The notes under the pieces are model-generated. The model made no database searches and was not told the origin of the DNA. It worked only from the letters and a program-made list of their open reading frames with translations. 64,000 bases of DNA, from the NCBI GenBank assembly GCA_011052215.1, contig DRJK01000127.1, forward strand, positions 652 through 64,651. Reading direction: 5' to 3'. The DNA is from Gammaproteobacteria bacterium. GTDB lineage: Bacteria > Pseudomonadota > Gammaproteobacteria > JAADHQ01. The translations under genes and the position numbers were made by a program. Within the stretch, counting starts at the first letter, position 1, and each line of letters opens with the position of its first letter. Shown piece by piece: positions 10,021 to 18,285 of the stretch.

Positions 10021-10830
10021 TTATCTGGCAAAAGGATTTTTTACACTCTTCAATCTGGTCACCAGGCTGTTTTTTTTATTCATCTCCAGCTCGTCCTTCT
10101 CACGCTCCTCTGCCAGAAACAGCTCCTTTTGCCGCTCCATTCTTGCCTCCCGAACAAGCCTCTGGAAATATGCCTTCTCGACATTGGGTAAATCCATTTT
10201 CAGGAAACCGTTCTCCTTTCTGACTATATACTTGCCCAGCTCGTCCAGAAAAGTGTCATCAACCTGCTGTGGGTTGAGACAGGACTGCTGCCAGAGCAGG
10301 TCTTCATAATTCCTGATAGTCATGACAATACCCGAGGTTTCAAGCTCACCCTTGAATTCAAAGGATACCGGGACAACGGATTCAACAGTGATATCTGCAC
10401 CGATCACTTCGTTATTTCCACCGCGCTCCCTTTTACAGCCATAGCGTATTCCGGCTCGATCCATCTCCTCCATAAGTGCATGCAGTTTTTTCTTACCCTC
10501 TACTGAAAAAGTCAATTCCTCCCCGGATTCACACCTGAAGCTGAACTGGACTTTTTTCAGTACCTCCTTGCGCCCCTTTTCCATGTGATAACCTGTTTGT
10601 CTCAGGTCTGCCAGGGTGCCATAACCGGAAATATTGTAATCAACCCTGATATCCGGTTTCAGATAGTTAAGATGCAACTCAAGCTCCTTGAGGTAATTGT
10701 AGATCCTCTCGATTCTTGGATTGATTTCCTTGTCGTAGATTTCACGCAAGCGGTGAGCACTCTCTTTCTCAAGTTGCTCTTTCTTCCTTGCTACTTCCGA
10801 TGCCTGTCGCAGTTCATCTAATAGTGCCAT
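10021..10830 (-). CDS. Uncharacterized 269-aa protein with coiled-coil-like charged N- and C-terminal segments; no family recognized
   Basis: Long ORF with an RBS-like GGGACAGG upstream. Lys/Glu/Arg-rich heptad-like ends flank a central mixed alpha/beta region. It lies 105 bp downstream of, and co-oriented with, the RR-PP2C gene. Confidence 0.6.
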   Translation of the reverse strand: MALLDELRQASEVARKKEQLEKESAHRLREIYDKEINPRIERIYNYLKELELHLNYLKPDIRVDYNISGYGTLADLRQTGYHMEKGRKEVLKKVQFSFRCESGEELTFSVEGKKKLHALMEEMDRAGIRYGCKRERGGNNEVIGADITVESVVPVSFEFKGELETSGIVMTIRNYEDLLWQQSCLNPQQVDDTFLDELGKYIVRKENGFLKMDLPNVEKAYFQRLVREARMERQKELFLAEEREKDELEMNKKNSLVTRLKSVKNPFAR

Positions 10831-10935: not shown

Positions 10936-12138
10936 TCAGCCACTTGCGCTGATCGTTTCCCCAGGTATCACATCAACCTGTTCCAGGTCGACAGATTCAC
11001 AGGTTAATTCCAGAAATGTAACATCATCATCCTGATCCAGTTCCTGCCTGAATGTATTCAGATTCAATAATACTTTCTCAAACCTGTCTCCGTCATTTCC
11101 AAGCAGAATCCCCCTGAGACGTTCCTCACCAAACCTTTCCCCGTCTTCCTTGCCAGCCTCAATCACGCCGTCACTGTAACAATAAAACTTGTCACCCTTT
11201 TCAACCTGTAAAATCTGTGTTGATGAATCAAATTCTTCATCCTTTACTATTCCAAGGGGTAAATGACTGGACTGAATAACACCTTTAAGGCCACCATCAC
11301 TATCCAACCAGTATGATCCGGGCATCCCGCCACTCCAGACTGCCAGTTGCTCGCCCGTTTTATCCAGTTCAAACAAGGTCGCGGCACAAAACATCCCGAT
11401 GGGCATGATGGATAACAATTGTCTGTTAATTTCATTTGCTATCATTGAAATCGGCAGCCCTTTCTGTGCCATCTTGAAAAAAATCATGACAACGGGTAAC
11501 GTTCCCATTGCAGCCCTCAGGCCATGCCCGGTAAAATCACCCAGTAGTCCAAATAACCCGCCTTCCGGCCCACGTTTTATCAGCAAGACATCACCATTAA
11601 AGGTTGACATGGGTGAAATATGGTATTTGATATAGGCAGGATCAAAATAGCTTTGCTTCAGCGCTTTATCAAAAAAATGCTCGATCATTTCTTTCTCAAG
11701 AATCAGGTCCTCGTTCTGAATCTCGAGTAATTTATTTTTCTCACTCAACTCCTGGCTGAGTTCCCGGATTCTTAAATGTGCATTGATTTTTGACTTCAGT
11801 ATGTCGATATTGACAGGCTTGTTTATGAAATCATCACCACCCGACTCCAGTGCCGTTGTCAGTGAATCCTCTACAGTCAGTGCCGTTACAAATATTATGG
11901 GCGTGTACTGCCATCCGGCTTTTTTCTTTATCCTTGTCGCCGCTTCATATCCATCCATCTCTGGCATATTGACGTCCATCAGAATCATGTCCGGATCGAC
12001 CTCGTCATATAGCCTGATCGCTTCCATACCATTTTCGGCTTCAGTTGTTATATAGCCGCAATTGGCAAGAGACCTGGCCAACATTTTCCGGTTGGCCAGG
12101 ACATCATCAACGATGAGAATATTTACTGGTTTATCCAT
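10936..12138 (-). CDS. Response regulator with C-terminal PP2C/SpoIIE-type Ser/Thr phosphatase domain (RsbU/RssB-like)
   Basis: N-terminal receiver domain (ILIVDDVxxNR...D...LMDVNMPEMDG...K) with the phosphoacceptor Asp. A coiled-coil linker follows. The SpoIIE-like domain retains its metal-binding Asp motifs (GDFTGHG, YSDGV, DDDVT). Confidence 0.85.
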   Translation of the reverse strand: MDKPVNILIVDDVLANRKMLARSLANCGYITTEAENGMEAIRLYDEVDPDMILMDVNMPEMDGYEAATRIKKKAGWQYTPIIFVTALTVEDSLTTALESGGDDFINKPVNIDILKSKINAHLRIRELSQELSEKNKLLEIQNEDLILEKEMIEHFFDKALKQSYFDPAYIKYHISPMSTFNGDVLLIKRGPEGGLFGLLGDFTGHGLRAAMGTLPVVMIFFKMAQKGLPISMIANEINRQLLSIMPIGMFCAATLFELDKTGEQLAVWSGGMPGSYWLDSDGGLKGVIQSSHLPLGIVKDEEFDSSTQILQVEKGDKFYCYSDGVIEAGKEDGERFGEERLRGILLGNDGDRFEKVLLNLNTFRQELDQDDDVTFLELTCESVDLEQVDVIPGETISASG

Positions 12139-12526: not shown

Positions 12527-12603
12527 TGGTAGCGGGGACAGGATTTGAACCTGTGACCTTCGGGTTATGAGCCCGACGAGCTGCCAGACTGCTCCACCCC
12601 GCA
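12527..12603 (-). tRNA. metY: Initiator tRNA-fMet (anticodon CAT)
   Basis: The reverse complement reads ...GCGGGGTGGAGCAGTCTGGCAGCTCGTCGGGCTCATAACCCGAAGGTCACAGGTTCAAATCCTGTCCCCGCTACCA. It is near-identical to E. coli tRNA-fMet, with three GC pairs in the anticodon stem and a 1:72 mismatch, both initiator hallmarks. Confidence 0.9.
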
Positions 12604-12664: not shown

Positions 12665-12698
12665 AAAAAAAAACGGGCATCCCGGGATGCCCGTTTTG
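12665..12698. terminator. Bidirectional rho-independent terminator (perfect 22-nt palindromic hairpin flanked by A-run and T-run)
   Basis: AAAAAAAA-ACGGGCATCCCGGGATGCCCGT-TTTG, immediately downstream of the DsrE-like gene stop. Confidence 0.65.
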
Positions 12699-12720: not shown

Positions 12721-13173
12721 TCAAGGTTTAATGTACAGGTAACCCTTCTGTTGCAGATCAGCAACTTCAGCAACACCTGACGGAACAATCTTGGCATTCA
12801 GGTTTATCTTGTTTTTGTTGATCTTCTTGCCACGGATGGTATTTGCACAGATTTCGAACTTGACACCACGGTTGGCCAGCTTCTGAATTTGCGCATCGAA
12901 GGCATGACCCTTCTTGTCTTTTGAACCATCAACCAATGCGAAGGCACCACTTGAGTGAGTGACAACGATGACTTCGATATTCTTGTCACCCAGGGCATTC
13001 AGGTGGTTTTTCACATTACGCAAGGCACCATATGCAGTCTGCAGATTATTTACATGGTAAACCACTTTTTGCTGGTTATAACCGTTTTTGGCTGGCTTCA
13101 GCTCTTGTCCACCACAACCAACGAGTGCAGTGCTTATAAGTGCCGCTGCAGCAATTGCTGTTAATTTATTCAT
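12721..13173 (-). CDS. Secreted lipoprotein, DsrE/DsrF-like family (tentative)
   Basis: 150 aa. Signal peptide plus lipobox (LISTALVGC). The remainder resembles the DsrE/TusD-like alpha/beta fold (VVYHVNN...IEVIVVTHSSG...GVKFEICANT...GYLYIKP). Strong AGGAGGAG RBS. Confidence 0.5.
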   Translation of the reverse strand: MNKLTAIAAAALISTALVGCGGQELKPAKNGYNQQKVVYHVNNLQTAYGALRNVKNHLNALGDKNIEVIVVTHSSGAFALVDGSKDKKGHAFDAQIQKLANRGVKFEICANTIRGKKINKNKINLNAKIVPSGVAEVADLQQKGYLYIKP

Positions 13174-13225
13174 ACTTGTTACTCCTCCTAGCAGGATATT
13201 TTTTTAATTTACACGCAACCTAGGT

Positions 13226-13241
13226 TGCAAGCTCTGTTCCA
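13226..13241 (-). promoter_or_regulatory. Sigma-54 (RpoN) -24/-12 promoter for the DsrE-like gene
   Basis: The minus strand reads TGGAAC-AGAGC-TTGCA, with exact GG/GC spacing matching the TGGCAC-N5-TTGCW consensus. It lies ~50-65 bp upstream of the ATG at 13173. Confidence 0.55.
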
Positions 13242-13386
13242 CATTAGCAAGTTTTTCTGAATATGTATAGATATCATGAACATAAAAAATTAAACATTAG
13301 TAAACCCTGTTTATCTATGTTGTTATTACAGTGCATATTGCATCTATCTTCAGGCCGTTTACAAAGAAACGTTGTAATATACAACC

Positions 13387-14751
13387 CTATTTTGTATCAC
13401 TGAAGCGTCGTAGTTTTCTCCACAATGTGGTCTTGTCTATTCCCAGAATACTGGCGGCCTTTGTTTTTTTCCCTCCCGATAATTCCAGTACATGCTCGAT
13501 ATACTTCTGCTCCAGTTTTTCAAGTGACGGAAACTCGTCTCGAGGAAATTGAATACCGGAATTGTTACTAAACACTTCCAGCTTCATACCCGCCTCCGGC
13601 CATGTCAGTATCGGTGTCTCTGACAGAATCACACATCTTTCCACGACATTGCGTAATTCACGAATATTTCCTGTCCAGTCTTCATTATAGAGGTGTTGCA
13701 TCGCGACAGAATCAAATCCTGTGACCTTTCTTTTATAACGTTTGGAAAATTCTTTCACGAAGTGTTCGACGAGTGACGGTATATCTTCACGTCGGTCATT
13801 CAACGAAGGTACATGTATATTAATTACATTCAATCGATGGTAAAAATCATGGCGAAATTCGCCTTTCTCAACCATGGCTTCAAGATCGCGATTACTGGCG
13901 GCAATAATGCGCATGTCAATGGGTACAGATACTGTGCTGCCTACACGTGTAATTGTCTGGCTTTCGATTGCACGCATGAGTTTCATCTGCATCGAATCTG
14001 TAATATTACATATCTCGTCAAGGAATAGTGTTCCCCCGCTTGCCTGCTCCATGAGCCCTTTTTTTCTCTGTGATGCGCCGGTGAAGGCTCCTTTCTCATG
14101 TCCGAATAGTTCGCTTTCAAGCAAGGTTTCTGTCAGGGCACCACAATCGATAACAATAAAAGGTGATTCCTTTCTTGGGCTGTAATCGTGCAGGGCACGT
14201 GCTACCAGTTCCTTGCCCGTTCCTGACTCGCCCGTAATAATAACATTACAACTGACTGTTGCGACCTTCTCTATGGTTGAGAACAGACTTTTCATAATGG
14301 GTGTGTCGCCAATCATGCCGAAACGGTTTCGGCATGTCTGAAGCTGTTTCTTCAGTATCTGGTTCTCCTCCTTTAAACGACGGGCATCGATGTTTCTGTC
14401 AATAATCAGTTTTAATTCCTCGAAGTCAAAAGGCTTTTTAATAAAGTCAGTTGCCCCCAGTTTCATGGCTTCGACTGCATTTTCGACAGATGAATAACCG
14501 GTCATCACCAATACCGGCAAATCCTTGTCAATCTCGCGTACTTTTGACAAAAGATCGAACCCACTCATTTCCGGCATTCGAAGGTCTGTAACCAGCAGAT
14601 CTCCGCCCGATGTCTCAAACTCCTTCAGACATTCCCCTGCTGACTGATAGACGCTGCAGTTATAACCTGCCTGCCCACAATTCCTTTGCATAATCGAGCA
14701 TGTAACTGAATCATCATCAACAAATAATATTTTTAAATCACCCCGTTGCAT
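13387..14751 (-). CDS. Sigma-54-dependent response regulator (NtrC family enhancer-binding protein)
   Basis: 454 aa. Receiver domain, AAA+ sigma54-interaction domain with GESGTGKE Walker A and a GAFTGA motif, and a C-terminal Fis-type HTH. Confidence 0.9.
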   Translation of the reverse strand: MQRGDLKILFVDDDSVTCSIMQRNCGQAGYNCSVYQSAGECLKEFETSGGDLLVTDLRMPEMSGFDLLSKVREIDKDLPVLVMTGYSSVENAVEAMKLGATDFIKKPFDFEELKLIIDRNIDARRLKEENQILKKQLQTCRNRFGMIGDTPIMKSLFSTIEKVATVSCNVIITGESGTGKELVARALHDYSPRKESPFIVIDCGALTETLLESELFGHEKGAFTGASQRKKGLMEQASGGTLFLDEICNITDSMQMKLMRAIESQTITRVGSTVSVPIDMRIIAASNRDLEAMVEKGEFRHDFYHRLNVINIHVPSLNDRREDIPSLVEHFVKEFSKRYKRKVTGFDSVAMQHLYNEDWTGNIRELRNVVERCVILSETPILTWPEAGMKLEVFSNNSGIQFPRDEFPSLEKLEQKYIEHVLELSGGKKTKAASILGIDKTTLWRKLRRFSDTK

Positions 14752-16690
14752 TTTTTACCTCAGGTGTTACATGTTCAATTTGTTCTTTTATTACGCCGGT
14801 TTTTGGCAGAATAATTACGACACGTGCACCACCTTCCGGCCTGTTCTCCAATGTAATAGAACCCCCGTGTTTATTGATAATTCCATAACTGACTGAAAGC
14901 CCGAGTCCGGTCCCACTGCCTTCCGGTTTGGTTGTAAAAAACGGACTGAACGCCCTGGCTATGTTCTCATTACTGACACCCTCTCCACTATCAATAATTT
15001 CCGCAACTATTTTTCCGTCAGATTGCCTGGCCTTCATGGTAATGGTTGATCCCGGGCCTGATGCATGTAATGCATTTACAAGTACATTCACCAGCACTTG
15101 CTGGAGTTGACCTGAGTCACCTTGCATGGTCAACGGGCTTTCAAGGTCCTTTATCAATTCGACTTCTGATGACTTCATTCGATGCTCAAAAACTGCCGCG
15201 GTATCCGACATTAATCGGGAGAAATCAAACTCTTCATATTTTGGTTTGTTCTCGCGAGCAAAGTTCAATACACCTTGTACGATTCTCGCACATCGCCGGC
15301 CTTCACTTTGTAAGGCGTTCAGGTCCTCTTTTATCTGTTTGCTGCTATCCGGAACATTCTGGTCGATCAGTGATGCGAGAGACATAATATTCATCAACGG
15401 ATTATTGATTTCATGACCTATGCCTGCAGCCATCTGACCTACTGCAGCAAGACGTTCAGACTGCCTTGCGGCAATTTCGGCCTTGATACGCTCATCCTGT
15501 GCCTTTTCAAGGGTTTTTGTCAGATAATTAAACGCCTTTCCTGCAAGTCCTATTTCATCGCGACGATTTTCACCATAATGTGAGCGCCGATCACCATCGG
15601 CATATTGTGTAATGATCTGTGCCAGATCGTGAACCGGCCTGGCCAAGCGTGAAGCCGCCCAGCGTGCAATAAACAAACCCACCAGAAAAACCAGTAGTAT
15701 CAGGGAAACTATCCAGTTTCTCAAACCCGAAATGGGTTCGAGTATGGCTTCCCTCGCCATTTCTATAACCAGTAACCATTTTGTATCCCTGTCCAGATAG
15801 GGTGAAAATTTATAATAATAAAATAATCTGTCGTTATCAGGCGTGACCATACCTGTTTTGCTACCACTGTTGATTTTTTTCCAGGCATCATCACCCAACT
15901 CGGTTGATAACCTGAAATTGGTGCCCAGTTGGTTGGCGAATCTTTTATTCTGGTCTTCGTGATAAAGGTAAATTCCGTCACGCTCTTTATCTTTGTTCAG
16001 TTCAACAATATATGCCTTACCCGGGTAACCCGCCAGTGCAGAATGCACGGCATCATCTACCCTTTTACCCCACATATTGACTATGAGTAGCCCAAAAGGA
16101 GATTCCAGTTCATCGCGTATGGCAAGGCTGTATCGAACCAGGGCCGGGCAGAAATCCACATCACCCAGGACCTTTCCCCTTTCAAAGTCTGATATGGAGA
16201 TATCTTCATCTGTTTTTTTGGCCCTGCGAAAAAATGATTTGTAGGCTATATCTTCAACATAGGACCTGCCACTGGCCAGCTTGTCTTTATACGGAATGAG
16301 CTTTCCTTCCTTGATTTTGACCAGCGTCTTGCCACTCATGTCGGTAAAACGGATCGCCTGAATACTGGGTACCGTGGCCTGATAATTAAGGAAGAAGGCC
16401 ATCAGCTCAATTGCCCTGTTTTCATACTGGGAGTCTTTGTCACTGCTGCTGACTACCGAGGCAAAATCACGGACCACTGGTACCTTGGCAAGTCCCCTTA
16501 CAATCGACTTCTGGTTGTCCATCAAGGTTGATATTTCCTTCGCCAGTTTGCTCAGCGTTTTGTTCATCTCCTTGCTGGTTCTGTCTTCCAGGTCACTTTC
16601 AATGTGACCAACAACACCAAACAACAGAATAAGCAATGGAACCATTGCCATAAGGCCGAGTACGAGGAAAAGTTTTTGACGCAGCTGCAT
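14738..16690 (-). CDS. Sensor histidine kinase with large periplasmic sensing domain
   Basis: 650 aa. Two TM helices bracket a ~280-aa periplasmic domain, followed by HAMP, HisKA (AAGIGHEINNPL) and HATPase_c (G-boxes). It overlaps the regulator gene by 14 nt, indicating an operon. Confidence 0.85.
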   Translation of the reverse strand: MQLRQKLFLVLGLMAMVPLLILLFGVVGHIESDLEDRTSKEMNKTLSKLAKEISTLMDNQKSIVRGLAKVPVVRDFASVVSSSDKDSQYENRAIELMAFFLNYQATVPSIQAIRFTDMSGKTLVKIKEGKLIPYKDKLASGRSYVEDIAYKSFFRRAKKTDEDISISDFERGKVLGDVDFCPALVRYSLAIRDELESPFGLLIVNMWGKRVDDAVHSALAGYPGKAYIVELNKDKERDGIYLYHEDQNKRFANQLGTNFRLSTELGDDAWKKINSGSKTGMVTPDNDRLFYYYKFSPYLDRDTKWLLVIEMAREAILEPISGLRNWIVSLILLVFLVGLFIARWAASRLARPVHDLAQIITQYADGDRRSHYGENRRDEIGLAGKAFNYLTKTLEKAQDERIKAEIAARQSERLAAVGQMAAGIGHEINNPLMNIMSLASLIDQNVPDSSKQIKEDLNALQSEGRRCARIVQGVLNFARENKPKYEEFDFSRLMSDTAAVFEHRMKSSEVELIKDLESPLTMQGDSGQLQQVLVNVLVNALHASGPGSTITMKARQSDGKIVAEIIDSGEGVSNENIARAFSPFFTTKPEGSGTGLGLSVSYGIINKHGGSITLENRPEGGARVVIILPKTGVIKEQIEHVTPEVKNATG

Positions 16691-16842
16691 AAAAAAATAC
16701 TAACATAGACTGCAAATTGCAGCACTAAATAAACTCGTAGCAAATTAACGTATTAGTGTTTACTTATTTATGATCGGAGATTGAGGTACATGCCCACGTG
16801 CAACGGGCGCGCGCGCAAGAACGTTCAGATGATCAGACCAGG

Positions 16843-18285
16843 CTACTGGATGACACTTTGGCAAATCGACATCAGGGCACCCGGATAGACTCCCAGGGCC
16901 AGCATCAGGATGCCGTTTGCGCTGATAACGACTTTCAGGTCTACATCCGGGGTAATCGCTGAATCATCTTCCGGTTTGTCAAAGTACATAATCTTGACAA
17001 GGCGAATGTAATAAAATGCACCCACAACCGAGAACAGCACGGCAGTAATAGCCAGCCATGTCATATCAGTATCGGCATTCAGTACGGCCTCGATAACCCA
17101 CAGCTTGGCAAAAAAACCAACGGTTGGCGGGACACCGGCCATGGAAAACATCAGCAACAACATCATAAAGGCATACCACTTGCTACGTTCATTCAGGCCC
17201 TTGAAGTCATCCAGGGTATCGGCCTCGAAGCCGGAGCGGCTTAACAGGATAATCATCCCGAAGGAACCGACCGACATCAGTGCATAAACCAGCACATAGA
17301 ACATTGAGGCCGAATAGCCGTCCGGCCGGGCCGAGATAATGCCCAGTAACAGGAATCCGACATGGGAGATGGTTGAATAGGCCAGCATACGCTTGATATT
17401 GGTCTGGGCAATGGCAACGATATTACCGATTGCCAGTGATAATACCGCAAGAATGGTTAGCATTTGCTGCCAGTCCGTGTGTAATGCCTCCATACCATCA
17501 ACGAGTATGCGCATAATGATGGCAAAAGCAGCAATCTTGGGGGCCGTACCAATGTATAATGTTACTGATGTCTGTGCGCCATGATAAATATCGGGTACCC
17601 ACATATGGAAGGGCACGGCACCCAGTTTGAACGCCAGGCCTACAACAATAAACACCAGCCCAAAGTCGAGTATGATATTACTGGTGCCATTTTTATTGAT
17701 ATAGGCTCCAATTTCCACGACATTCAGTGAGCCGGTAATGCCGTATATCATCGACATGCCGTACAACAACATACCGGAAGCGATCGCACCGAGTACGAAA
17801 TATTTCATCGCCGCCTCGGTTGATACCTCTGAATCCCGATTCAGGGCCACCATGGAATACAGGGATAATGACAGCAATTCCAGCCCCAGGTATACCGTCA
17901 GAAAACTATGTGCCGACACCATTATCATCATGCCCAGAACACCAAATAAGCCTAATGCGTAGTATTCGCCCTTGAACTGGCCCCGGGCACGCAAGTAGTC
18001 TCTTGAATACAGGAAGACGGTTGCCGTAATGACATAAATAAATATTTTCAGAATGTCGCCCATTGGATCCCTGATAAAGGACCCTGAAAAACCGGTAGTA
18101 CTGGGCGAGCCGATCTGGCTATAGGTAATAAGTACTGCACCGAGCAAGGTCAATTGTGCAAGCAAATAGGTAATGATCCGGTTTTTATCCTTCAGGAAGA
18201 GATCGATTATCAATACTGCACAGGTCATCCCGAGCACGAATATCTCAGGTAATGCGAGTTCCAGATTGGGCATATCAATGATCAT
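16843..18285 (-). CDS. nuoN: NADH-quinone oxidoreductase subunit N
   Basis: 480 aa polytopic antiporter-like subunit. Last gene of the nuo operon. Confidence 0.93.

Follow-up and report, generated by a model that had tools for sequence, protein, structure and literature searches.

Introduction

The nearest described counterpart of the system considered here is TspS/TspR of Acidithiobacillus caldus, which exerts sigma54 two-component control over the sox-II cluster (PMC6335251). Its sensor TspS was reported to contain a single Cache domain, sCache_3_2 (PMC12194929), and TGTCCCAAATGGGACA was described as the site of the regulator TspR (PMC6335251, PMC12194929). In Sulfurimonas hydrogeniphila, thiosulfate is sensed by SulRS, a two-component activator of sox genes (PMC12936845), and for the Thiohalomonadales symbionts of lucinid clams a 2024 publication noted in passing a soxYZ locus with "sigma-54 and histidine kinase" regulators (PMC11237559). 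Here we describe a module consisting of a sensor kinase, an NtrC-class regulator and a sigma54 promoter in front of a gene for an exported DsrE-fold protein. All of its parts are located on the minus strand of a 64,000-nt stretch of contig DRJK01000127.1 from a Gammaproteobacteria bacterium (GCA_011052215.1), referred to as the window in the following. The module appears to constitute a hitherto undescribed circuit that controls extracytoplasmic sulfur oxidation.

Woeseiaceae, Thiohalomonadales, relatives of Sedimenticola and similar bacteria are the dominant sulfur oxidisers of marine sediments, vents and symbioses. In the literature searched, no described regulation was found for the Sox genes of these sulfur oxidisers. 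The module represents a concrete predicted circuit that comprises a sensor, an activator and promoters, together with a recognition core of 11 bp and three target positions. We regard it as probable that its three genes form, as a whole, a signalling module for periplasmic, Sox-linked sulfur handling. With high confidence we predict the circuit itself, in which the kinase would act through the regulator, paired sites and a sigma54 promoter on the DsrE-like gene, with probable autoregulation and with soxYZ as a further target in relatives.

Conserved Module and Sigma54 Promoter

Relatives were collected by a scan with one genome per species, which gave 80 loci (labelled L001 onwards), all of them gammaproteobacterial. 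Record titles of the carriers include Thiohalomonadales, Thioalkalispiraceae, Sulfuriflexus, Thiohalophilus, Sedimenticola, Woeseiaceae, Granulosicoccaceae and Ectothiorhodospiraceae. The order of kinase, regulator and DsrE-like gene is kept in 76 of the 80 loci, mostly directly after nuoN. Among the four exceptions, L043 and L071 are truncated by the end of a contig, and the orphan paralogues L020 and L076 have unrelated surroundings. Identity to the proteins of the window amounts to 65–91% for the mature DsrE-like protein, 55–80% for the regulator and 48–73% for the kinase. An earlier note, made from the letters of the window alone, had placed a kinase, a regulator with a GAFTGA motif, a promoter and a DsrE-like gene on one strand, and all four were found there at the positions it gave. 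Together with the palindromes of the note, they recur in about 75 related loci. The wiring it proposed, leading from the kinase via the sigma54 activator and its sites to the promoter and the DsrE-like gene, is now backed by comparative evidence from synteny, promoter, palindromes and the joint loss of GAFTGA and promoter.

The sigma54 promoter TGGAACAGAGCTTGCA (TGGAAC-AGAGC-TTGCA) is located at 13226–13241 of the minus strand, with its GG at 13240–13239 and its GC at 13228–13227. It ends 52 nt ahead of the ATG of the DsrE-like gene, and the transcription start is predicted near 13215. The pattern TGGNAC-N5-TTGCW has this one match in 64 kb compared to 0.5 expected by chance, and TGGAAY-N5-TTGCW precedes the start codon of the DsrE-like gene by 42–105 nt in 61 out of 77 homologous regions between regulator and DsrE-like gene, in line with the RpoN promoter proposed in the earlier note. 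A sigma70-like promoter was not predicted in the intergenic region between regulator and DsrE-like gene. The strong ribosome-binding site claimed for the gene is present as well: a Shine-Dalgarno sequence AGGAGG (13184–13189, minus strand) can be read from the sequence 10 nt before the ATG. An intrinsic terminator composed of a GC-rich 12-pair stem and T9 (12670–12697, minus strand) follows the DsrE-like gene, which would therefore be monocistronic.

Palindromic Candidate Activating Sites

Two palindromes precede the promoter, both exactly at the places named in the earlier note. The distal one, TTGTATATTACAA (core TGTA-N3-TACA; 13372–13384, minus strand), begins 3 nt past the stop codon of the regulator gene and is candidate upstream activating site 1. 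The proximal one, TGCAATATGCA (TGCA-N3-TGCA; 13332–13342, minus strand), lies upstream of the -24 element, 101 nt from its first base, and is candidate site 2. Their distance of 41 bp from centre to centre is close to the approximately 40 bp proposed before.

The exact proximal sequence TGCA-N3-TGCA occurs in 70 of the 77 homologous intergenic regions, typically 26–28 nt past the stop codon of the regulator gene. Each of its eight core positions reaches 2.0 bits, compared to 0–0.4 bits in the flanks. Since the core is invariant while the flanks have diverged beyond recognition, the proximal palindrome has been kept under divergence of its neighbourhood. The distances between this palindrome and the promoter form four groups of 84–89, 97–102, 108–112 and 116–123 nt, with none in between. 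These groups are about 11 bp apart, which fits a helix-face constraint without proving it statistically. A Rayleigh test on the distances gave similar scores for all periods of 10–13 bp and could not discriminate between them because one distance mode dominates. Long spacers after the regulator gene were observed in L022 (1576 nt) and L017 (408 nt), where the palindrome is still found about 99–111 nt before the -24 element. The promoter-proximal unit thus moves as a block.

The distal element, TGYA-N3-TRCA and often GGTGTAAATTACAC overlapping the stop codon of the regulator gene, is less widespread than the proximal one. Its spacing to the proximal palindrome is 31–33 nt in 26 loci and 22–23 nt in two, compared to 41 nt for the window; these values correspond to steps of about one helical turn. 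In the window alone, TGCA-N3-TGCA occurs five times versus 2.2 expected, with four of the five copies inside the 4-kb module. Across the loci, the palindrome density is 0.51 per kb in the module versus 0.083 per kb in the flanks. As judged from these counts, the statistics of the window are weak evidence by themselves, and it is the conservation in relatives that lifts them far above chance.

Two further exact copies of TGCA-N3-TGCA are located within coding sequence, at 13033–13043 in the DsrE-like gene and at 16037–16047 in the kinase gene. They probably occur by chance, since binned positions in relatives show no cluster there. A site for integration host factor was also considered and rejected: between the palindromes and the promoter, no WATCAA-N4-TTR is present on either strand, and the spacer is merely 70–85% A+T.

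Regulator and Joint Loss of GAFTGA and Promoter

The regulator gene (13387–14751, minus strand), whose start overlaps the stop of the kinase gene by 14 nt, encodes 454 aa that Pfam and NCBIfam assign to an NtrC-class response regulator and sigma54 enhancer-binding protein. According to Pfam, it consists of a receiver domain (REC), an AAA+ domain with GAFTGA, AAA_lid_14 and a Fis-type HTH_8. Response_reg reaches 94.9 bits over residues 8–117, with the receiver aspartate D56 within LLVTDLRMP. Sigma54_activat (PF00158) scores 226.7 bits, its GAFTGA being part of ELFGHEKGAFTGA, and HTH_8 scores 47.8 bits. The conserved palindromes lie at the distance expected of candidate activating sites for such a DNA-binding domain.

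GAFTGA is degenerate in two separate groups of loci, 11 in total, each of which has a full-length regulator. The loop reads HGVNDA in the first group (L033, L041, L042, L046, L066) and NAFSGA or a variant thereof in the second (L059, L061–L064, L080). The -24/-12 promoter ahead of the DsrE-like gene is missing in all 11, and the ten soxY-bearing loci of both groups are also devoid of a -24/-12 promoter before soxY. TGCA-N3-TGCA is retained in the degenerate-loop loci. Among the loci with GAFTGA or GSFTGA, 60 of 64 have retained the promoter. The orphan paralogues L020 and L076, which have no adjacent kinase-regulator pair, carry neither palindrome nor promoter and serve as a negative control. 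This joint loss of loop and promoter, together with the bare orphan paralogues, is to our judgement the strongest non-experimental evidence that the regulator would drive these promoters. The degenerate-loop groups appear to represent an enhancer-binding protein that switched promoter class with its binding site kept, and their joint loss of GAFTGA and -24/-12 element can be viewed as a natural experiment on how promoters are switched. In one of the two groups, a TGTATATAAT-like -10 element was observed immediately ahead of the ribosome-binding site.

Promoter and palindromes might also be products of chance; kinase and regulator would then control distant genes, and transcription of the DsrE-like gene would be independent or due to read-through. 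The expectation of 0.5 promoter matches and 2.2 palindromes per 64 kb for the window alone and the boundary between regulator and DsrE-like gene, at which a terminator is missing, would agree with this. We give such a coincidence almost no weight, since the elements have kept their positions in dozens of loci in spite of a complete divergence of the intergenic sequence around them, the loss of GAFTGA matches the loss of the promoter and the orphan paralogues have neither element.

Sensor Kinase and its Upstream Region

The sensor histidine kinase (14738–16690, minus strand; 650 aa) was characterised by Pfam domains, an AlphaFold model and Foldseek. It is composed of a first transmembrane segment, a periplasmic double-Cache domain of about 295 aa, a second transmembrane segment, HAMP, HisKA and HATPase_c. 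Hydrophobic segments at residues ~7–29 and 325–346 flank the periplasmic part. The large periplasmic domain noted earlier is hence confirmed, with a size of about 295 aa rather than about 280 aa. Pfam dCache_1 matches residues 35–309 with 37.7 bits, which is under the 45-bit cut-off, and HK_sensor_dom_bact was found as well. Residues 30–326 were modelled with a predicted local distance difference test score (pLDDT) of 84.1 and adopt a double-Cache fold. Foldseek matched this model best with 3lid_A, the extracellular domain of the Vibrio kinase vpHK1S-Z8 (E 3e-12); the next matches were the dCache domains of chemoreceptors, of DctB and of KinD. A homologue search with the periplasmic domain returned 18 proteins, mostly partial, which sufficed for the model and are uninformative on distribution.

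A further copy of the palindrome, TGCAAATTGCA (16711–16721, minus strand), lies 21–31 nt before the start of the kinase gene. In 60 of 65 related loci, TGYA-N3-TRCA is found 25–36 nt before the kinase start codon, at about 32 nt as a rule, all listed cases being TGCA-N3-TGCA. A -10 element adjoins it on one side, either a TATAAT-like one directly upstream or a TGnTAGCAT-like one directly downstream. From this position, the palindrome is probably an operator giving autoregulation of the kinase-regulator operon.

Other features of this region (nuoN-kinase intergenic sequence, 16691–16842) were also observed. The kinase gene has no visible Shine-Dalgarno sequence, and in the locus group of the window the TGnTAGCAT-like -10 element is located only about 7–10 nt ahead of its ATG. 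For these two reasons the kinase mRNA may be leaderless. Many other loci contain a degenerate GGCA-N3-TGCA at -16 to -5 of the kinase gene, and many have a second full palindrome 100–140 nt upstream in the nuoN-kinase region.

Association with soxYZ in Relatives

In relatives, palindromes also cluster about 1.5 kb downstream of the start of the DsrE-like gene. A soxY-soxZ operon adjoins the module in about 48 loci, within L019–L080, about 0.5–1.6 kb past the DsrE-like gene (e.g. L023:7591–8565). The operon is convergent in most of the carrying loci and co-directional in one group. Exact TGCA-N3-TGCA is present in 46 of 47 distinct soxY upstream regions. A strict TGGTAY-N5-TTGCW promoter follows 74–78 nt downstream of the palindrome in 30 of those regions, and several more carry near-variants recognised by eye, such as TGGCAT-N5-CTGCT. 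An additional TTGCA half-site is located 15–18 nt further upstream of the soxY palindrome. Since the same palindrome and -24/-12 promoter are found at soxYZ in most relatives, the regulon most likely serves the periplasmic oxidation of reduced sulfur. The envelope sulfur-handling function guessed in the earlier note has thereby gained independent support from the adjacent soxYZ behind the same elements. Based on the co-regulation of soxYZ and the lifestyles of the carriers, we consider it somewhat probable that the circuit serves sulfur oxidation in the periplasm.

Exported DsrE-Fold Protein

The target gene (12721–13173, minus strand) encodes a secreted DsrE-fold protein of 150 aa, a predicted lipoprotein, as determined by Pfam, a PDB profile search, AlphaFold and Foldseek. 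It matches Pfam DsrE (PF02635) with 45.4 bits at a cut-off of 22.7. A profile of 29 orthologues found 1l1s (MTH1491; E 7.4e-12) and 2pd2 (ST0148; E 1e-9) in the PDB. The AlphaFold model has a pLDDT of 88.8, and Foldseek gave TM values (by target) of 0.91–0.96 to 1l1s, 2pd2 and 8uja, followed by YchN, DsrEFH and TusBCD. Profile and predicted structure therefore both uphold the DsrE-like assignment. Close homologues are 63–91% identical and annotated at most as "DsrE family protein". No paper on this exported DsrE-like protein was found in the literature searched. SaoD, a DsrE-like protein from a selenoprotein preprint, was considered as a relative and rejected, as it belongs to a different CxxC family.

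The signal peptide MNKLTAIAAAALISTALVGC ends in the lipobox L17-V18-G19-C20, a match to the pattern [LVI][ASTVI][GAS]C from which lipidation is predicted. All 71 distinct orthologue N-termini have a signal peptide, 25 with a lipobox and 46 of the signal peptidase I type. With a lipobox in only 25 of 71 N-termini, export rather than lipid anchoring is the conserved trait. The lipoprotein claimed in the earlier note is accordingly a prediction for the protein of the window and does not extend to its orthologues in general. At E ≤ 1e-3, a search of 1.84 billion representative proteins gave 1998 members of the wider family. Among the best 150 of these, 125 are full-length; the N-terminus resembles a signal peptide in 84 of the 125 and is a longer region containing a hydrophobic segment in 23. 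Judged by these N-termini, export is the rule in this DsrE subfamily and secretion alone not unusual. The view that a secreted DsrE-fold protein would be exceptional had to be given up, as a signal peptide or a membrane anchor is present in most of the 150 closest representative clusters.

Cys109 is nearly invariant and located in the motif ICANTIRG at the end of the third beta-strand. In the 138 members that were aligned out of the best 150, Cys109 is conserved in 134, H40 in 125, H57 in 120 and H73 in 92. The three histidines are thus conserved along with C109 across the exported subfamily, N111 and T112 also being listed. H57 and H73 are not conserved in the archaeal MTH1491. Comparison of the family profile with E. 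coli TusD by hhalign gave one 15-residue segment with a probability of 0.5%, aligning GVKFEICAN with GVALNICVA of TusD. No second DsrE-like open reading frame (ORF) that could represent a DsrF/H or TusB/C partner is present in the module or its flanks.

Conserved histidines and cysteine would also suit a ZraPSR-type response to envelope or metal stress, in which the DsrE-like protein binds metal via His/Cys and the link to sulfur reflects the phylogeny of the carriers. The combination of kinase, sigma54 regulator and small periplasmic target is the architecture of ZraPSR, H40, H57, H73 and C109 are conserved in 92–134 of 138 homologues, and ZraR and ZraS are matched with 421 and 145.8 bits by regulator and kinase, respectively. 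These scores are far under the equivalog cut-offs of 760 and 479. The best NCBIfam models for the regulator are AtoC, NtrC and ZraR, all far under their cut-offs, and the AtoC/AtoS and NtrC models perform equally well or better. Further, the target is not ZraP-like, soxYZ in relatives has the same palindrome and promoter, and two of the three histidines are not conserved in MTH1491. A stress response of this kind is therefore regarded as improbable.

Proposed Mechanism

In the mechanism we propose, the double-Cache domain of the kinase would sense a periplasmic signal (thiosulfate, polysulfide, sulfide or another reduced sulfur compound being most likely), upon which the kinase would phosphorylate the regulator. 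The latter would bind TGCA-N3-TGCA and the variant TGTA-N3-TACA about 100 and 140 bp before the -24/-12 promoter and drive open-complex formation by sigma54 RNA polymerase. The product would be a monocistronic mRNA with a strong ribosome-binding site, encoding the exported and here lipid-anchored DsrE-fold protein. Binding of the regulator to the third palindrome copy at the promoter region of its own operon would probably add autoregulation. The DsrE-like protein, in turn, would most likely carry or transfer sulfane sulfur on Cys109 alongside SoxYZ. Domain content, promoter, conserved sites, co-evolution of regulator and promoter, fold and export were established by analysis and comparison of sequences; the protein that binds the sites, the identity of the signal and the sulfur-carrier chemistry are the parts that we infer. 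A role of the protein as carrier of sulfane sulfur on Cys109 together with SoxYZ is accordingly put forward as a tentative suggestion.

Several observations speak against this mechanism or narrow it. No terminator was found between the regulator gene and the DsrE-like gene, so that read-through could add sigma54-independent expression. Four loci (L018, L025, L034, L055) have GAFTGA and no recognisable -24/-12 element. Neither soxY nor soxZ is present anywhere in the 64-kb window, and soxYZ is also absent from this locus in its nearest relatives L001–L018. As a consequence, the sulfur link of the window rests on orthology with relatives. The carriers are all from related sulfur-oxidising lineages, and shared ancestry may for this reason explain part of the association with sulfur oxidation. 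Concerning the protein, the equivalence of Cys109 to the persulfide Cys78 of TusD/DsrE is suggestive, based on a fold match and a short profile alignment that is insignificant, and the conserved H40, H57 and H73 could mark a site for metal or another ligand.

The main rival retains the same wiring and assigns a different task to the DsrE-like protein, which would be a periplasmic co-sensor or feedback modulator binding the Cache domain or the signal. Periplasmic modulators of their own systems are ZraP for ZraSR, CpxP for CpxAR and QseG for QseEF. Kinase, regulator and DsrE-like gene stay linked in the absence of soxYZ (window, L001–L018), and by the identities given above conservation among the three is highest for the DsrE-like protein.

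Anti-sigma factors also lend credibility to a co-sensor role. About 20 of the best 150 representatives of the family consist of a zf-HC2 anti-sigma domain, a membrane segment and the DsrE-like domain, and more than 1000 such fusion proteins exist. With the DsrE-like domain forming their extracytoplasmic part, it can act as a sensor module. Two fusions were looked up on four contigs of Betaproteobacteria (L084:4859–6699, L085, L086 and L087:4803–6708), in each case behind the gene of an extracytoplasmic function (ECF) sigma factor. On three of these contigs, the fusion is accompanied by a divergent, free DsrE-like gene of 148–149 aa; one of these free proteins (149 aa) is 47% identical to that of the window. 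The pairing of an envelope-signal regulator with an exported DsrE-like protein thus seems, from these gene arrangements, to have arisen on two different regulatory chassis. Neighbours of the ECF/fusion loci include an SBP_bac_11 binding protein, cytochrome c, Glu-Cys ligase and a DsbH-like thioredoxin.

On the other side, contact between protein and kinase is conjecture, the co-regulation of soxYZ suits a working partner of the Sox carrier at least equally well, and a conserved cysteine at the usual catalytic position of DsrE suits sulfur chemistry. A co-sensor function is considered rather unlikely on these grounds, and it would be compatible with a role as sulfur carrier.

The carrier role of the DsrE-like protein would be of interest beyond this module. 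How sulfane sulfur is handled without SoxCD is called largely unclear in a passage of the literature (PMC9959259), and the exported DsrE-fold protein, tied to SoxYZ by the module, is a candidate for this step. More speculatively, exported DsrE-like proteins may form a large overlooked class of extracytoplasmic sulfane-sulfur carriers or sensors, here taking or giving SoxY-bound sulfur and repeatedly placed under dedicated envelope-signal regulators, be it a sigma54 two-component system or an ECF/anti-sigma pair. This generalisation is doubtful at present. If true, acceptance or donation of SoxY-bound sulfur would fill a step that is missing from the Sox model without SoxCD.

Genomic Surroundings

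The minus strand of the window reads nuoN (16843–18285), kinase, regulator, an intergenic region of 213 nt, the ORF of 150 aa, its terminator and tRNA-Met (12527–12603). Beyond tRNA-Met, two more genes on the same strand precede rimP, nusA and infB. Between tRNA-Met and rimP, a SpoIIE-type phosphatase response regulator (REC-PP2C; 10936–12138) and an ORF of 269 aa (10021–10830) with neither a Pfam nor an NCBIfam match were observed. At this place, the two occur only in contigs with the identical protein and in one other locus. They were considered as parts of the system and rejected, as they are not conserved beside the module elsewhere.

Comparison with Known Systems

With DsrEFH and TusBCD, the target protein shares the fold (Foldseek TM 0.68–0.71 to 2hy5_A and 2d1p_A) and a conserved cysteine after the third beta-strand, where Cys78 of TusD/DsrE carries the persulfide. 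Unlike these cytoplasmic hetero-oligomers, it is exported and stands alone, DsrF/H or TusB/C partners being absent from its neighbourhood. Its closest relatives, MTH1491 and ST0148, are uncharacterised proteins of a single chain, and the sequence similarity to TusD is insignificant.

The ZraS/ZraR/ZraP system of Enterobacteria resembles the module in having a kinase that senses the periplasm, a sigma54 regulator, a small periplasmic target in the neighbourhood and autoregulation. In contrast to the alpha/beta fold of DsrE with its conserved cysteine, ZraP is all-helical and binds zinc. The genes of ZraSR and ZraP are divergent, whereas those of the module are co-directional, and the scores of the ZraR and ZraS models are well under their cut-offs.

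SulRS shares the connection to sox genes, but as a sigma70-dependent system of OmpR/EnvZ type with direct-repeat sites it is mechanistically unrelated to the module (PMC12936845). The soxYZ locus of the lucinid symbionts very probably corresponds to the module found in loci like L031 and L036. The publication describing it (PMC11237559) gives the gene neighbourhood only; a text search of it returned no "DsrE", and the passages retrieved contain neither a promoter nor a binding site.

Closest is the resemblance to TspS/TspR. Both systems combine a membrane kinase bearing an extracytoplasmic Cache-type sensor with an NtrC-class regulator, and both place an upstream palindrome and a sigma54 promoter at genes of periplasmic sulfur oxidation, with thiosulfate as a proposed signal. 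TspS/TspR is located beside sox genes, which applies here to about 48 relatives and not to the window. The host of TspS/TspR belongs to a different bacterial class, and the two systems are set apart by their described features, not by sequence orthology. In place of the single Cache domain of TspS, the kinase described here has a double Cache domain of about 295 aa. The TspR site has no match with up to two mismatches in the module and three matches elsewhere in the window, compared to 2.7 expected; the element found here is TGCA-N3-TGCA instead. Finally, TspR targets soxXYZA-hyp-soxB, while the targets of the present circuit would be a stand-alone gene for a secreted DsrE-like protein and, in relatives, only soxYZ.

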